Below, one piece after another: positions 1-5,564 of a stretch of DNA of 41,409 nt; position 1 is the stretch's first letter; every line of letters begins with the position of its first letter. A program made the translations under genes and the position numbers. The DNA is from Actinomycetota bacterium (GTDB lineage Bacteria > Actinomycetota > Actinomycetes > JAKEEW01), in NCBI GenBank assembly GCA_046725875.1, contig JBKOZJ010000007.1, positions 1 through 41,409 of the forward strand, written 5' to 3'. The notes under the pieces are model-generated. The model did not search any database. It was not told the DNA's origin and was given only the letters and a program-made list of their open reading frames with translations.

Positions 1-62
1 ATACCGATCGGCCTTGCCGGGGGGGTAACTGGAGGTCGGTCGGTCATACCGGGCCGCGGCGC

Positions 63-230
63 GGTCGAACGATCAGGCAATGTGCCGAAGCCGTGAGTTT
101 TGTAGTGATAGGGATCGAGCAATGTGCCAGGACCGTGACGAGGACGGCCAATTCGTCAAGGTCTCAGCACATTGCCCGATCCCGATCGCTCGGAAACTCA
201 CGGTCCTCGCACACGGCCTGATCCTCGACC
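63..230. repeat. Long imperfect inverted repeat (arms 63-141 and 153-230) built from 2 forward and 2 reverse copies of a ~27-nt unit
   Basis: The left arm ggtcgaacgatcaggcaatgtgccgaagccgtgagtttt...gggatcgagcaatgtgccaggaccgtgacga aligns to the reverse complement of tcgtcaaggtctcagcacattgcccgatccc...aaactcacggtcctcgcacacggcctgatcctcgacc, with an 11-nt loop. Confidence 0.9.
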
Positions 231-394
231 AGCCTGGCCGCAGCGCCGGCACTCGCAGCGGGGATGCAGGGACGTTGGACTGCTCCGGAGTCGACCGCGC
301 ACCCGGCGCCAACGCGGCTGGCTGAGGAGGAGACGCTGCTTCCGAGACTTGCGCGTGCTCGGCTTGCAATGGGTCGGCAGGGTGCAGGCGACGC

Positions 395-551
395 GTGTCC
401 GAGCTCTTTTGCGCTGGCCGGGCCCGCGGGTACGCACCCCACGGAAACGCCTCGGCCCGATCCGCTGCCACGTGGCGCTGGTGCCTTCGGCGCCCCGCGG
501 CCTTGCAATGCATCCCGCGGTCCTCCGGCCCGGGTCAAAGACCTCGAACAC
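395..551 (-). repeat. Fold-back (MITE/ERIC-like) element, copy E1
   Basis: Imperfect terminal IR gtgtccgagctcttttg / caaagacctcgaacac. Internal stems 424-436/509-520 and 439-451/489-500. The core 468-506 (minus strand) matches 3417-3455. Confidence 0.75.
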
Positions 552-611
552 TCGCCACTCAGTGTCGGGGAACTCGGGGGCGGGAGGGTTGGCCGGCGCT
601 TTGCGCGAGGG

Positions 612-1829
612 TTAGCTGGCCATCTCCTTCTGGAGATTGCCGTCGATGGCGGCGAGGAACTCCTCGGTGGTCAGCCACGGGGTGCCGGGGCCGACCAGCA
701 GGGCGAGGTCCTTGGTCATCTGACCGGTCTCGACGGTCCGGACGCACACCCGCTCCAGGCTGCGCGCGAACCGTTCGACCTCGGGCGTGCCGTCCAGCTT
801 GCCGCGATGCTGCAGCGCCCGAGTCCACGCGAAGATGGACGCAATCGGGTTGGTCGAGGTCTTCTCCCCGCGCTGGTGCGCTCGGTAGTGCCGGGTGACC
901 GTCCCGTGGGCGGCCTCGGCCTCCACCGTTCGTCCGTCGGGGGTCATCAACACCGAGGTCATCAAGCCCAGCGAGCCGAAGCCCTGGGCAACGGTGTCCG
1001 ACTGCACGTCACCGTCGTAGTTCTTGCACGCCCAGACGAAACCGCCCTCCCACTTGAGCGCCGCCGCGACCATGTCATCGATGAGACGGTGCTCATAGGT
1101 GAGCCTGGCGGCCTCGAAGTCGGCCTTGAACTCGGACTCGAACACCTCGGCAAACAGGTCCTTGAAGCGCCCGTCGTACGCCTTCAGGATGGTGTTCTTG
1201 GTCGACAGGTAGACCGGATAGCCCCGGTCAAGCCCGTACCGGAACGACGCACGGGCGAAGTCGCGGATCGAGTCGTCGAAGTTGTACATCGCCATGGCAA
1301 CGCCGCCGCCGGTGAAGTCGGCGACATCGAACTCCATCGGCGAGCCACCTTCCGCCGGGGTGTACGTGATTGTGACCCGCCCAGGTCCAGGTACGACGAA
1401 GTCAGTAGCGCGGTACTGGTCGGCGTGCGCATGACGGCCGACCACGATCGGCTTGGTCCACGTCGTGATCAGCCGGGGCACGTTCGAGATGATGATCGGC
1501 TCGCGGAAGATGACGCCACCGAGGATGTTGCGGATCGTGCCGTTCGGCGACCTCCACATCTTCTTCAGCCCGAACTCCGCGACTCGCGCCTCGTCCGGGG
1601 TGATGGTCGCGCATTTGACCCCGACGCCGTGCTCCTTGATCGCGTTCGCGGCGTCGACCGTCACCTGATCCTCGGTCGCGTCCCGGTTCTGGATCGAGAG
1701 GTCGAAGTAGAGCAGGTTGATGTCTAGATACGGCAAGATCAGCTGGTCCTTGATGAATGCCCAGATGATCCGGGTCATCTCGTCGCCGTCGAGCTCGACG
1801 ACCGGGCGAGCTACCTTGATCGTGTTCAC
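612..1829 (-). CDS. icd: NADP-dependent isocitrate dehydrogenase (dimeric, eukaryote-like type)
   Basis: [61 protein letters not shown] and [11 protein letters not shown] motifs; GGAG upstream of the GTG start. Confidence 0.97.
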
Positions 1830-1862
1830 GAGGACTTCTCCACGAGACTTAGGGGCGGCGTC

Positions 1863-2819
1863 CTAGAGGTTCTGCACGTCGGACTGCTTGGCACGGACCG
1901 CCTCGGCGGCTTCGTTGAGCGCGGCGAGCTCGCCCGCCGTGAGTTCGGTCGGCACGACTCGCCGTACTCCGGACGAGCCGATCTCGGCCTCTACCCCCAG
2001 GTAGACGCCGCTGATCCCGTACTCACCGTCCACCCATGCGCAGACGGGCAGAATCGCGCCGGAGTCCTCGGCCACCGCTCGCACCATCCGGGCCGCCGCC
2101 GCTGACGGCGCGTAATAGGCCGAGCCGCTCTTGAGCAGCGCGACGACTTCAGCACCGCCGTTGCGGGTCCGGGAGACGAGGCTTTCGATCTCGGTGGAGT
2201 CGAGGAGCTCGGTAAGCGGCCTCCCGTCGACGGTGCACCGCGACGGCACCGGAACCATCGTGTCGCCGTGCGAGCCAAGCGTCAGCGTCTGCACGCTGGC
2301 GATCGGCACGCCGAGCTTCTCCGCCACGAAGTGCGTGAACCTGGCGGTGTCGAGCATTCCGGCCTGGCCCATCACCTGGTTCTCGGGAAAGCCGGTGACA
2401 AGCTGGGTCAACGCGGTCATTTCGTCAAGCGGGTTCGACACGACGACCACCACCGCGTTCGGGGCGTACTTTGCAACGTTCTCCGCGACCTGCCGCACGA
2501 TCTTGGCGTTGACCTCCAGGAGATCCATCCGGCTCATGCCCGGCTTGCGGGGCAGTCCGGCCGTGATGACCACGGCGTCGGAACCGTCGATCACTTCGTA
2601 GCCTTCGCCGCTCAGCCCGGTCGTCTGGCCGACGACCTGCGTCTCGAAGCCCTCGACCGGCCGGGACTGGTTCATGTCGAGGGCGAGCCCCTCCGGCTTG
2701 CCCTCGATGATGTCGGTGAGCACCACGGCCTCGAAGATGTCGTACTCGGCCAGCCGCATCGCGGTCGTCGAGCCGTAGAAGCCGGCGCCGACCACGGCTA
2801 CCTTTCCCTTGCGCGCCAT
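1863..2819 (-). CDS. mdh: Malate dehydrogenase, LDH-like type
   Basis: GAGFYG Rossmann motif, TAGLPRKPGMSRMDLL, VSNPLD, LDTARF, GSHGDTMVP, SAYYAP. Start placed at ATG 2819 after GAGGAG. Confidence 0.95.
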   Translation of the reverse strand: MARKGKVAVVGAGFYGSTTAMRLAEYDIFEAVVLTDIIEGKPEGLALDMNQSRPVEGFETQVVGQTTGLSGEGYEVIDGSDAVVITAGLPRKPGMSRMDLLEVNAKIVRQVAENVAKYAPNAVVVVVSNPLDEMTALTQLVTGFPENQVMGQAGMLDTARFTHFVAEKLGVPIASVQTLTLGSHGDTMVPVPSRCTVDGRPLTELLDSTEIESLVSRTRNGGAEVVALLKSGSAYYAPSAAAARMVRAVAEDSGAILPVCAWVDGEYGISGVYLGVEAEIGSSGVRRVVPTELTAGELAALNEAAEAVRAKQSDVQNL

Positions 2820-2885
2820 GCGGTCGCTTCTCCTCGTACCAGATCCTTGGTAAGTCCGGACGCCGGCGGCACAGCCGCCAGAAAC

Positions 2886-2911
2886 AATTTCTCTCGGTAT
2901 CGAGAGAAATT
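2886..2911. promoter_or_regulatory. Perfect palindrome (11-bp arms), probable operator of mdh-icd
   Basis: AATTTCTCTCG-gtat-CGAGAGAAATT, lying just downstream of a TAGGCT -10-like hexamer (minus strand, 2920-2925). Confidence 0.6.
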
Positions 2912-2955
2912 CGGCTACGAGCCTAGACCACGCAACCGGTGTCGTGCGCGGGCCG

Positions 2956-3279
2956 TCAGGACGGCGGCGGGACAACGAGGGCAAATACCAGCAGGGATGA
3001 GCCGAGCCCAGCCAGCGTGAGGACGTCGAGGAGCCGGCTGCGGACCGCGAGCAGGCCCGCGTCCCGCGCCGGGAGGGCGAGCCGCAGGGCAGCGGCGAGG
3101 AGTACAGACAAGGCCAGGAGCACGGTCCCCCGGCGGAAATGGTTCAACGCCACGACGGACAACGAGGCGGCGACCGCTAGGAGAACGACGGTGATCGGCC
3201 ATTCCCGAGGGAGCCGGAACCGCCGCATAAGTGTCCGCTGCGCATGTCTGGCCCGCGGCCGCGTTGTCGGGCTCGCCAC
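2956..3279 (-). CDS. DUF3017-family small membrane protein
   Basis: HFRRG...ALRLALP..AGLLAVRSRLLDV signature; AAGGAGG upstream of the GTG; usual position near folD in actinomycetes. Confidence 0.85.
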   Translation of the reverse strand: MASPTTRPRARHAQRTLMRRFRLPREWPITVVLLAVAASLSVVALNHFRRGTVLLALSVLLAAALRLALPARDAGLLAVRSRLLDVLTLAGLGSSLLVFALVVPPPS

Positions 3280-3363
3280 TACCTACCTCCTTCGACCGGT
3301 CCAGGTACCGCTCCGGGATCCGGTCCGCAATCAGGCATCGACCCAACCTTCGCGGAGGGCCTA

Positions 3364-3523
3364 GGACGCTGCTGAACAACCGCGCCCGTCGCGAGCGGCG
3401 TCCAGGCGTCGATCCGGCAAGGCCGCAGGGAGGCCAAAGTAGCAGCGCTACATGGGCGACCGAGAACGCCGCCGGGCGGCGCCTGGTCGTCGCGCAGCCG
3501 GGTGGGGTTGTTCAGCAGCGTCC
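3364..3523 (+). mobile_element. Putative MITE / fold-back element, copy E2, with perfect 18-bp TIRs
   Basis: ggacgctgctgaacaacc (3364-3381) is the exact reverse complement of 3506-3523. CTAG lies at the left end, an internal stem pairs 3396-3411 with 3477-3492, and there is no coding capacity. Confidence 0.75.
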
Positions 3524-3532
3524 GCGGCCGGG

Positions 3533-4666
3533 TCAGCGCGCTTCGATCGGCGTCCACTTCTGGTCCCGTTCGCCGATGTACTCGCTATCCGGGCGGATCA
3601 ACCTGTTGTCCAGGTGTTGCTCGATCACGTGCGCGGTCCAGCCCGACATCCGGGAGATCGCGAAGACCGGGGTGAAGAGGTCGGTCGGGATGCCGAGGTA
3701 GTGGTAGACCGAGGCGGCGAAGAAGTCGACGTTCGGGTAGAGGTGCTTCGTGTCGAAGACCGCCTGCTCCATCCGCCGCGACATCTCATAGAAGGTGCGG
3801 TCACCGCGCATGTCCGCCAGCTCCTCGGACATGCGGCGGAGGTGCGTCGCCCGCGGATCCTCCGTCTTGTAGACCCGGTGCCCGAAGCCCATGATCTTCT
3901 TACCGCTGTCCAGCGTGTCCCGTACCCACGGCTCGACGCCGTCGACCCCGCCGGGGATCGCTCGCAGAGTGTTCATGACGGCCTCGTTGGCACCGCCGTG
4001 CAGCGGCCCGCGCAGGGCGCCCATCGCGGCGGTGATCGCCGAGTGCATGTCCGACATGGTCGCCGCGACGACCCGCGCGGTGAAGGTCGACGCATTCATG
4101 GTGTGGTCGGCGTGCAACACGAGGCACTCATCGAAGATTTCTGCGGCCCGCGGCTCGGGTCGGCCGCCGGTGATCTGGAGGAGGAGGTTGCCGGCGATGC
4201 CGAGTGAGGCATCGGGCTCCGGCATGCTGTCCGTAGCGTCCGTGCGGGCCGCCTGGTAGCGGGCCACGAGGATCGGCATCTGTGCGATGAGGCGTACCGC
4301 TTTGCGCTGGTTGGCATCTGGGGACGAGTCCGCCGCGTCCGGGTCGTCGGTCGATATCGACGACACGAGCGTGCGCAGCGCCTCCATCGGGGTGCCGGAC
4401 TTTACGACGTAGGGCAGGACCGCCTCTGTGGTCGGGCCGATCTGCCGCGCGGCGGCCAGTTCCGAGACGAGCGCGTCCAGTTCCGACCGGGTCGGCAGGC
4501 TGCCGCGCACCAGCAGGTTTACGACTTCCTCGAAGGAGGTACGCCCGGCGAGATCATGGATGTCGTAGCCGCGATAGGATAGGCGGCCGGCGGCGCCGTC
4601 GATATCGGAAATCGCGGTCGACGCCGCTACGACATCGGCGAGACCACGAGCTGGCTTGTCGGCCAT
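3533..4666 (-). CDS. Citrate synthase / 2-methylcitrate synthase, short CitZ/PrpC-like type
   Basis: [71 protein letters not shown]. Confidence 0.93.
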   Translation of the reverse strand: MADKPARGLADVVAASTAISDIDGAAGRLSYRGYDIHDLAGRTSFEEVVNLLVRGSLPTRSELDALVSELAAARQIGPTTEAVLPYVVKSGTPMEALRTLVSSISTDDPDAADSSPDANQRKAVRLIAQMPILVARYQAARTDATDSMPEPDASLGIAGNLLLQITGGRPEPRAAEIFDECLVLHADHTMNASTFTARVVAATMSDMHSAITAAMGALRGPLHGGANEAVMNTLRAIPGGVDGVEPWVRDTLDSGKKIMGFGHRVYKTEDPRATHLRRMSEELADMRGDRTFYEMSRRMEQAVFDTKHLYPNVDFFAASVYHYLGIPTDLFTPVFAISRMSGWTAHVIEQHLDNRLIRPDSEYIGERDQKWTPIEAR

Positions 4667-4691
4667 CGCTGTTCCTCCTGGGTTGCGGGAT

Positions 4692-5564
4692 CTAGCCTTG
4701 GTGCCCGACGCCTAGGTCGGCCAGCCGTTCCGCGGCTTCGACAACGTTAGTAAGCAGCATCGCGCGGGTCATCGGGCCGACGCCACCGGGGACGGGCGAG
4801 AGCCAGCCGGCCACCGACGCGACCCCGGGTGCCACATCGCCGACCAGCCCGGCCGGCGTGCGGGTGATGCCGACGTCCACGACCACGCCGCCGGGCCGCA
4901 CCATCTCGGGAGTGATCAGGCCCGGCGAGCCGGCGGCGACGATGAGGATGTCGCCCCGCCTGGTGTGCGCGGCGAGGTCCCTGGTACCGGTGTGGCACAA
5001 CGTCACCGTCGCATTCTCGGTGCGGCGGGTCAGCAGCAGGCCCAGTGTCCGGCCCACGGTGACGCCACGGCCAACCACGACCGCGTCGGCGCCGGCGATC
5101 TCAATCTCGTTCCTGCGCAGCAGCTCGACGATGCCGCGCGGCGTGCCGGGCAACGGCGCCGGCACGCCGAGGACCAGCCGCCCCAGATTCAGCGGATGCA
5201 GGCCGTCGGCATCCTTCGCCGGGTCGACAAGCTCGAGGATGCGCTGGGCGTCGAGATGGCCCGGAAGGGGGAGCTGTACGAGGAACCCGGTGCACGACGG
5301 ATCGCCGTTGAGCTCTCGTACCGCATCCTCGACCTCGGCCTGGGCGGCGGTCGCTGGAAAATCACGGCGGATGCTGGTGATCCCGACCTCGGCGCTGTCG
5401 CGATGCTTTCCGGCGACATAAGCCAGGCTGCCCGCGTCGTCGCCCACCAAGATTGTCCCGAGCCCGGGAGTCATGCCCCGCTGGACCAGCCGGTCGATCC
5501 GCTCCTTCAGCTCACCACGGATTGCCGCGGCAGCCGACCAGCCGTCGAGAGTTTGGGCACCCAC
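4692..5564 (-). CDS. folD: Bifunctional methylenetetrahydrofolate dehydrogenase/cyclohydrolase
   Basis: [40 protein letters not shown]. Start is GTG 5564 or 5582. Confidence 0.95.

Follow-up and report, generated by a model that had tools for sequence, protein, structure and literature searches.

MITEs are usually defined by their ends, and their middles are regarded as junk. Among other palindromic repeats, REPINs conserve their repeat arms and have a Y1 transposase as partner, and integron attC sites, palindromes of diverse sequence, function as a single folded strand, with a choice of strand. For IS630, a preference for TA within CTAG was reportedly described by Tenzen and Ohtsubo in 1991. 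Members of the IS630 family duplicate TA and transpose by cut-and-paste of double-stranded DNA, according to the passages of PMC2170065 that deal with them. Among described MITEs, two come close to the elements presented here. RUP of Streptococcus pneumoniae is a 107-bp MITE that has been attributed to IS630-Spn1, as set out in the RUP section of PMC2229807. In the sections of the same article on the Correia elements (NEMIS) of Neisseria, the long form equals the short form plus 50 bp of internal sequence that include an IHF site, and hairpins formed by the transcripts have been proposed as targets of RNase III cleavage (PMC2229807). Correia elements are thus a precedent both for a functional middle and for action at the RNA level. 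Here we analyze two fold-back elements, E1 and E2, in a window of 41,409 nucleotides from an Actinomycetota bacterium (contig JBKOZJ010000007.1 of assembly GCA_046725875.1), and we compare them with these systems.

Results

A first-pass annotation of the window had described two rod-like hairpins, and folding places both at the coordinates given in Table 1. E1 folds better on the minus strand (-101.8 kcal/mol, z -4.5, versus -87.1 on the plus strand), and E2 on the plus strand (-128.9, z -9.5, versus -108.2 on the minus strand). Both are non-coding and belong to a size class of ~160 nt; the inverted repeat of E2, I3, is 31 nt long and 87% complementary. The neighbors also agree with those named at first (E1 sense to icd, E2 antisense to its flanking genes): E1 follows an Iso_dh gene in the sense orientation, 53 nt after its stop, and E2, flanked by a citrate synthase gene and a DUF3017 gene, is antisense to each of them. 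The match reported between the two centers is likewise present, with 30 of 39 nt (77%) shared between the reverse complement of 468-506 and 3417-3455. By itself such a 39-nt match is weak in DNA of 68% G+C; what makes us regard it as real is that the complete core is present in full E1-type copies at other places in the genome (C9, C61, C186). The decayed core of E1 itself is missed by the core covariance model R1 at E<=0.01.

Table 1. Coordinates of the E1 and E2 elements and of their parts within the window
Feature	Position	Strand	Basis
E1, decayed copy of the "E1" arm family	395..551	-	fold; nhmmer match 390-559; alignment with the C61, C9, C186 and C18 copies
Core remnant in E1	468..506	-	30/39 match to E2; 5' motif kept, 3' motif lost
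CTAG, left edge of E2	3361..3364	.	TA 3362-3363 is the presumed duplicated target
E2, intact fold-back MITE, "E2a" arm family	3364..3523	+ (core-bearing strand)	fold; 94% identical full-length copy at C15
E2 left terminal inverted repeat	3364..3381	+	part of inverted repeat I3; same ends at C15, C84, C149, C22 and C139
Core module: closing stem P1, 9x9-nt conserved internal loop, hairpin P2	3406..3481	+	model R1, 70.9 bits, E 1.8e-13
Core 5' conserved strand GGCAAGGCCGCAG	3416..3428	+	sequence
P2, variable covarying hairpin of the core	3429..3460	+	pair counts on alignment A1
Core 3' conserved strand CGAGAACGC	3461..3469	+	sequence, model-aligned copies
E2 right terminal inverted repeat	3506..3523	+	inverted repeat and ends common to other copies
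E2 right-hand CTAG partner, mutated	3524-3527	.	sequence

A multi-copy family had been predicted, and more copies were indeed found in this genome and in its relatives. With nhmmer, 21 non-overlapping E2-type places and 14 E1-type places were detected in the genome, and E2 has about 12 further full or partial copies there beside the one at C15. In both families CTAG borders the intact copies; in the other E2a/E2b copies the left flank is CTAG and the right one CTAG or CTAA, and at both edges of E1 the CTAG is mutated. The termini had been called unrelated, with the middle conserved rather than the ends, unlike in ordinary MITEs. The ends of E1 and E2 do differ and the center is the conserved part across families, but each arm family keeps its own ends, and the "unrelated termini" are therefore those of distinct MITE families with one common cargo.

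Comparison of orthologous loci, a check proposed by the first-pass annotation, revealed presence/absence polymorphism. The spacer between the citrate synthase and DUF3017 genes has no element in 6/6 family relatives, and none of the same six has such an element past the Iso_dh gene. G003, a genome of a sister genus, carries three 158-160-bp insertions whose sites are empty in one or both of its congeners G005 and G006; CTAG or CTAC stands at the empty site and CTAG-element-CTAG at the filled one, a pattern in which a 4-bp CTAG duplication is indistinguishable from a TA duplication. For E1 and E2 themselves, target duplication is presumed from the flanking CTAG pattern of their families. Short, non-coding and ending in terminal inverted repeats, the elements have the build of IS630/Tc1-mariner MITEs, and the three filled-versus-empty comparisons in the sister genus add insertion at TA, preferably in CTAG, with its duplication.

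An autonomous IS with the same ends was found for the E1-type arms, in G006 and not in this genome. Among the five DDE_3 matches of G006 is a 1150-bp IS encoding a 367-aa IS630-family transposase (NF033545, 249 bits, cut-off 100), whose ends, inside CTAG, match the E1-type arm over ~36 nt; the E1 family is thus the arm family whose ends match an IS630-family IS. Just ~46 nt of this IS are non-coding, and the core is therefore not IS-derived. This genome (89% completeness) yielded no intact IS630 transposase gene, the best match scoring 27 bits, below the cut-off. A search for a partner IS with E2-type ends returned MITE-sized pairs and solo ends only, both across 41 genomes and in this genome. 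With a TA/CTAG target duplication and a matching autonomous IS for E1-type arms, the mobility of E1 and E2 looks ordinary, and their cargo is apparently undescribed.

The core runs from GGCAAGGCCGCAG through a covarying hairpin to CGAGAACGC, and a short stem closes it. Among 61 model-aligned copies, chosen independently of the motif, at least 95% of the distinct rows retain GCAAGG. In P2, changes on both sides occur at all 11 pairs (86 sequences), and the length between the two motifs spans 18-46 nt among the matches listed, limits that are set by the search pattern. The core stems covary, as a folded element selected for its structure had been expected to do, by pair counts on 86 non-redundant cores with the structure supplied by hand (alignment A1): 76.4% of the cells pair versus 27-45% with slid partners, both sides change in 262 cells versus at most 126 with slid partners, and the observed score was reached by none of 500 shuffles, copies inside one family not being independent in these statistics. 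The 22 "invariant" columns of A1 are so by construction, the sequences having been picked with the pattern. Of 119 pattern matches listed, nine chance matches without paired flanks (L104, L152, L157, L163, L178, L184, L200, L201, L203) and three irregular stretches (L139, L193, L218) were left out of A1 and of the mismatch counts. RNAalifold run on a MAFFT alignment gave a 4-pair artefact alone, because the hairpin was not aligned by structure. Two orthologous pairs show how the parts change: in one, which uses the unpublished genome G046, the 75-nt core has 1 change versus ~13 in the arms, several of them compensatory, and in the other there are 7 changes in ~160 nt and none in the loop strands.

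The exact two-motif pattern matched at least 119 stretches, with named Frankia assemblies among the sources; in a control on five genomes, the backward pattern had 0 matches versus 17 for the forward one. The core is found in MITEs with unrelated arms across Actinomycetota and in TA-flanked MITEs of gut Clostridia, and its distribution is patchy: of the other genomes sampled, 10 of 150 in the phylum have it, as do 2 of 120 in a Clostridial order. An undescribed actinobacterial family had been proposed. The first half of this proposal is supported, as no RNA family in Rfam 15 matched, either at gathering score over the whole window or, in 5045 bases of 6 loci that represent the two phyla, at E<=1, but the presence of the core in Clostridia takes it beyond Actinobacteria. 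With blastn, E2 had no match among plasmids (72,556 records) or phages (50,697 records), and a viral contig collection had 0 matches to the exact pattern. A full-text literature search, with subscription journals and ISfinder outside its scope, returned nothing on this core or on actinobacterial IS630 MITEs. Three sequencing runs are listed for positions 1-4700 of the window, all of soil DNA and with small shares.

Pairing was said to be strand-specific, with G-U mismatches only on the strand bearing GCAAGG. "Only" overstates the case, since on that strand the arms of E2 have three G·T-type mismatches and one of A·C type, and those of E1 four and one; the direction of the bias, however, holds widely. 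Over 70 elements, arm mismatches on the core strand amount to 243 of G·T type versus 69 of A·C type, with a G·T excess in 63 elements, the reverse in 3 and a tie in 4. Counted per independent arm family, the excess is seen in 27 of 32, the reverse in 1 and a tie in 4, so that the asymmetry does mark one strand, and the core strand is also the better-folding one at 64 of 72 loci. The bias in 27/32 arm families points to selection on one folded strand. G·T wobbles stabilize DNA hairpins too, and for this reason the asymmetry cannot separate RNA from single-stranded DNA.

Two further measurements concern orientation. The position of the core relative to neighboring genes does not favor sense co-transcription: for resolved copies with co-directional neighbors, as judged with a crude GC3-based gene caller, the ratio of sense to antisense is 1:5 in this genome, 0:7 in G094 and 4:4 in G003. 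Orientation relative to GC skew is heterogeneous between genomes, the core strand being the C-rich strand of the 8-kb flanks in 18/22 cases in G094 (p 0.004), 15/22 in this genome and 13/24 in G003, and no reading rests on skew.

Discussion

E1 and E2 are probably IS630/Tc1-mariner-type MITEs and, as part of the same claim, elements maintained as one folded single strand. On this reading, IS630/Tc1-mariner-family transposases mobilize elements of both types in trans, with insertion at TA, by preference within CTAG (frequently a TAG stop codon), and duplication of the TA. The outer ~36 nt of a MITE are the inverted repeats of such an IS630-family IS, as seen for the E1-type arms, and between the arms lies a cargo of ~75 nt that is absent from the IS. 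This cargo combines a conserved internal loop of 9x9 nt (GGCAAGGCCGCAG / CGAGAACGC) with the stem that closes it and a hairpin that varies freely. The same cargo is found in MITEs of two phyla, and its arm sets there are several and unrelated. We infer that the shape of the element is kept as one folded single strand, in which the internal loop, brought together by the two helices, may be a binding platform.

More tentatively, the ~75-nt core could be an undescribed, widely dispersed structured module, in which two helices clamp a conserved internal loop and which is selected as one folded strand. MITEs of IS630 type that differ in their ends would then have captured it, or passed it among themselves, repeatedly and in at least two phyla. 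As to the form of that strand, our preference is a guess, and a rather doubtful one: it might be RNA produced by read-through of neighboring genes. Such an RNA would affect transcript processing or stability, as with Correia or ERIC hairpins, and its loop would bind a conserved host protein; both of these are again guesses.

It is somewhat unlikely that the fold is active as single-stranded DNA and not RNA, during replication or at a step of the element's own spread. The core strand has no sense preference relative to neighboring genes and is C-rich in the flanks of G094 (18/22, p 0.004) and of this genome (15/22), and the two motifs are adjacent in the folded form only, at any hairpin length, all of which would suit a single DNA strand. 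However, the skew bias is absent in G003 (13/24), no Y1/HUH transposase gene was found in this genome (PF01797: 0 matches), and IS630-family transposition, in the account given in PMC2170065, is cut-and-paste of double-stranded DNA.

We consider it unlikely that these are plain MITEs without functional cargo, whose arms are re-copied at the DNA level by hairpin-templated repair or template switching and whose core is shared through recent exchange of middles. Deletion derivatives formed at short direct repeats, such as a 65-nt mini-element at C28, and a distribution as patchy as that of any mobile DNA are consistent with such a history. Re-copying gives perfect arms, however, and no preference for G·T over A·C, whereas the bias is present in 27/32 arm families. 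Both loop strands are also kept across arm families and two phyla, with an intervening hairpin that is free in length and sequence; the core changed less than the arms in the two orthologous pairs; and, by eye, none of the 33 core-oriented copies listed has a flipped core.

It is improbable that the core stands on its own as a new kind of structured RNA (a ribozyme, an aptamer or a polymerase decoy), with the MITE as its vehicle and the long arms incidental. A strongly conserved symmetric internal loop between two covarying helices, the lack of a match in Rfam for the whole window and for the 6 loci, and tandem arrays of arm-plus-core units with 84-100-nt spacing would all agree with this. Against it, no promoter or terminator is conserved alongside the core, because the arms differ between families, and by eye no promoter-like hexamer in the arms is conserved between arm families. 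Nor was a single-copy "home" locus found beside a particular gene, or, by eye, a hammerhead-type motif.

That these hairpin-shaped, intergenic, multi-copy elements are REP/REPIN-like and moved by a RAYT (Y1) transposase is extremely improbable, this identity being contradicted by the empty-site and IS data, with a CTAG target duplication and a matching IS630-family IS instead, and by the lack of a Y1 gene, as PF01797 has 0 matches in this genome (89% completeness) versus a match in 6 of 14 control genomes.

Should the core be a module selected as one folded strand, it would be more than spacer DNA: a cargo, either selfish or exploited by the host, that has its own molecular partner (a protein, a polymerase or a nuclease). 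The middle of these MITEs is conserved across arm families and phyla, its stems covary and the wobble bias is strand-specific. Were the module to have such a partner, it would define a class of structured element that is both new and abundant, present in Actinomycetota of soil and in Clostridia of the gut, and core-bearing MITEs would lend themselves to asking what benefit a non-coding transposon draws from cargo. On the practical side, these repeats occupy stop codons and operon interiors and break metagenome assemblies, and a model of them aids annotation.

Among known systems, REPINs resemble these elements as hairpin-forming repeat doublets scattered between genes, but here conservation lies at the tip, the partner is an IS630-family enzyme of the DDE type and no Y1 gene was found. 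An attC site conserves the base of its hairpin and is recombined by an integrase, whereas here the tip is conserved and the element transposes into TA. ERIC (IRU) repeats of enterobacteria are, in Table 1 of PMC2229807, imperfect-palindrome intergenic repeats of similar size with TA at their termini; a resemblance to E2 had been suggested by the first-pass annotation, but a blastn search with E2 (word 11) in 20,395 records of complete E. coli genomes gave nothing at E<=0.01, a weak test for a match of ~30 nt. RUP is likewise non-coding, multi-copy and targeted to TA, with ends like those of an IS630-family IS taken as its mobilizing partner (PMC2229807). The RUP section of that article reports no structure or function motif, whereas the elements studied here have a conserved covarying center, several arm families and a range of two phyla. 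Correia elements are TA-flanked MITEs with inverted repeats as well (PMC2229807, in the part devoted to them), but their middle is read as a protein site on double-stranded DNA, whereas the middle described here makes sense only when folded and is strand-biased.

Results

Three long fold-backs lie at the start of the window, at about 60-235, at E1 and at E2, and the energies of all window folds are lower than those of dinucleotide shuffles. The centres of E1 and E2 are identical at 30 of 39 positions. The first-pass annotation of both as fold-backs with a common centre is confirmed. E1 lies 53 nt downstream of the stop codon of an Iso_dh-family gene, to which it is sense, and E2 is flanked by genes for citrate synthase and a DUF3017 protein, antisense to both. 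E1 is decayed, its edges being mutated on both sides and the 3′ half of its core gone, and it was not detected in a scan with R1, our covariance model of the core. The remaining fold-back, adjoining E1, is a member of a separate MITE family, a 154-nt near-perfect palindrome (z of -13) whose ends start with GATC and whose arms each contain the end motif a second time, internally. This family counts 13 full copies and does not contain the core of E1 and E2.

Three rounds of nhmmer on the source genome assembly (3.76 Mb in 197 contigs, of which the window is C7; 67.6% G+C, completeness 89%) bore out the proposal that further copies exist, with 21 non-overlapping E2-type and 14 E1-type places. The E2-type copies form two sets with a common inner part and different ends, and a third kind of end is found on the E1-type copies. 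Intact copies of all three arm sets are bounded by CTAG, with CTAA as an alternative at the right edge. The first-pass claim of unrelated termini stands between E1-type copies and the two E2-type sets but not within an arm family: full-length identity between E2 and a copy on contig C15 is 94%, so ends are conserved inside one arm family, as in any MITE.

Several smaller structures accompany these copies. A 65-nt mini-element consists of only the two E2-type ends and is a deletion derivative, as the point where they join coincides with a short direct repeat found in both E2 arms. A second small hairpin module (45-70 nt, with a GAAA-like loop on a G/C stem) has an insertion point that differs by MITE copy (left arm, right arm and once within the core) and may be a tiny mobile unit in its own right. 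Tandem arrays with 84-100-nt spacing repeat the left arm and core before a single right arm (loci L105, L109, L118 and L073/L077). Just past the Iso_dh stop, at the place that E1 takes in the source genome, locus L238 (genome G006) carries a 15-nt CTAG-bounded string built of both MITE end motifs, and L237 (genome G003) a CTAG-bounded mini-palindrome of about 50 nt; both may be footprints of excision or copies with internal deletions.

Locations of the repeat elements and modules, with folding energies in kcal/mol
Feature	Location	Fold, plus strand	Fold, minus strand
E1	window 395-551	-87.1	-101.8
E2	window 3364-3523	-128.9	-108.2
GATC-ended MITE	window 71-223; contigs C121, C125, C62 (two copies), C6, C8, C69, C60, C57, C101, C10, C114		
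Mini-element of E2-type ends	source genome (G000) C28:4726-4790		
Second small hairpin module	source genome (G000) C84:16073-16281, C149:5132-5338, C185:1580-1800; loci L072, L075, L084, L088		

E1 and E2 are both absent from syntenic spacers in the six other genomes of the family. E1-type copies occur by the dozen in a sister genus, with at least 26, at least 34 and at least 19 core matches per genome, lower bounds from the 40 candidates scored in each. Empty orthologous sites, a check suggested at first pass, are present for three insertions of 158-160 bp in G003, the sites being empty in G005 and/or G006. Sister-genus sites read CTAG or CTAC when empty and CTAG-element-CTAG when filled. IS630 reportedly prefers CTAG, a finding attributed to Tenzen & Ohtsubo in 1991. 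The empty and filled sites fit both this preference and the TA duplication of the IS630 family. The duplication is a described trait of IS630-family elements (PMC2170065).

A candidate partner is found among five DDE_3 matches in G006. One is a 1150-bp element with CTAG at its bounds. It encodes a 367-aa transposase of the IS630 family (NF033545 score 249 bits, cut-off 100) with DDE_3 and HTH domains. The E1-type MITE arm matches the ends of this IS over about 36 nt, and another G006 IS of the same kind adjoins a MITE, a single CTAG being common to both. Only about 46 nt of the 1150-bp IS are non-coding, and the MITE middle therefore does not come from it. The 89% complete source assembly gave only a sub-threshold DDE_3 match, and a search of 41 genomes revealed no IS bearing E2-type ends. 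The mobility of E1 and E2 is ordinary, that of an IS630-type MITE.

The centre common to all three arm sets comprises a short closing stem, GGCAAGGCCGCAG, a hairpin and CGAGAACGC. Across one genome per species, exact matching of both motifs at a permitted spacing of 18-46 nt gave at least 119 stretches, 9 of which lie inside genes and were set aside as chance hits. By record title, the hosts among the matches listed are mostly uncultured Actinomycetota (Frankiaceae, Micromonosporaceae, Mycobacteriales, Acidimicrobiia, Streptosporangiaceae), and Clostridia are also present (Oscillospiraceae, Ruminococcaceae and others). Five Clostridial genomes contain 1-8 pattern matches each, 17 in total, and none of the backwards pattern; the Clostridial core hairpin sits within a MITE roughly 330 bp long that has inverted repeats of its own and TA on either side. 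Distribution of the core is patchy: among 150 other genomes sampled from the phylum, R1 matches 10 (7 of 10 within one family, and at least 29 copies in one genome), and among 120 others from a Clostridial order it matches 2. Four R1-matching genomes (G046, G062, G091 and G163) are flagged as unpublished. Rfam gave no match, in keeping with the suggestion of an undescribed family, and neither did plasmids, phages, E. coli genomes or viral contigs. Among 33 listed copies, judged by eye, no core is flipped.

The proposed covariation of the core stems was recovered in A1, an alignment of 86 non-redundant cores with a structure supplied by hand and 22 columns invariant by construction. Under the given structure 76.4% of cells are paired, versus 27-45% with slid partners; double-change cells number 262 versus at most 126, and the structure score was equalled by none of 500 shuffles. 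The core hairpin varies freely in length and sequence, so the two loop strands are juxtaposed only when folded. A second alignment, A2, of 61 copies recovered by similarity or R1 independently of the motif, retains GCAAGG and most of both loop strands and also contains variant loop pairs. In three genomes only (variant cores L260, L261 and L267), base six of the 5′ loop strand changes from C to A together with base four of the 3′ strand from A to G; these positions lie opposite each other, so a non-canonical pair may form.

Discussion

The fold is better on the core-bearing strand than on its complement at 64 of 72 loci. When the 5′ arm of each element was aligned with the reverse-complemented 3′ arm, both strands being treated alike, the arm mismatches of 70 distinct elements, as read on the core strand, were 243 of G·T type versus 69 of A·C type (3 versus 1 in E2, 4 versus 1 in E1). 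G·T is in excess in 63 elements, with 3 reversed and 4 tied, and in 27 of 32 unrelated arm families, with 1 reversed and 4 tied (sign test, 2e-7). DNA-level re-copying between the arms can account for their complementarity, but it can explain neither the G·T bias nor the conserved loop strands. The bias across arm families supports selection on one folded single strand, RNA or single-stranded DNA, as inferred at first pass.

The G·T bias is compatible with RNA and with single-stranded DNA alike and does not distinguish them. Neighbour orientation, counted with a crude GC3-based gene caller of our own, argues against a simple RNA reading. The core strand has no preference for sense to neighbouring genes; co-directional neighbours are sense or antisense in ratios of 1:5 in the source genome, 0:7 in G094 and 4:4 in G003, and numerous copies have divergent or convergent genes on their two sides. 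Of the two strands of the flanks, the one that carries the core is C-rich at 15/22 copies in the source genome, 18/22 in G094 and 13/24 in G003, a heterogeneous picture. For the 22 G094 copies (L279-L298), the C-rich-strand bias in 8-kb flanks is 18/22, yet gene orientation is 11:11, and the bias is absent in G003.

Orthologous copies allow core and arms to be compared. A core-bearing element kept in two species of a single genus (L260 in G046, L261 in G176) lies between putative genes for ribosomal proteins S14 and S8, assigned solely from translated gene ends, and is antisense to both. The pair, which depends on the unpublished genome G046, differs at 1 core position versus about 13 arm positions, where several of the changes are compensatory. 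An arm of this element seems to provide a Shine-Dalgarno-like stretch ahead of S8. A second orthologous pair has 7 differences in about 160 positions and none in the loop strands.

A conserved, strand-specific core common to several MITE families in two phyla appears to be undescribed. In kind, RUP is the nearest known counterpart of these IS630-type MITEs, and the E1- and E2-type elements may work in like manner to Correia elements.
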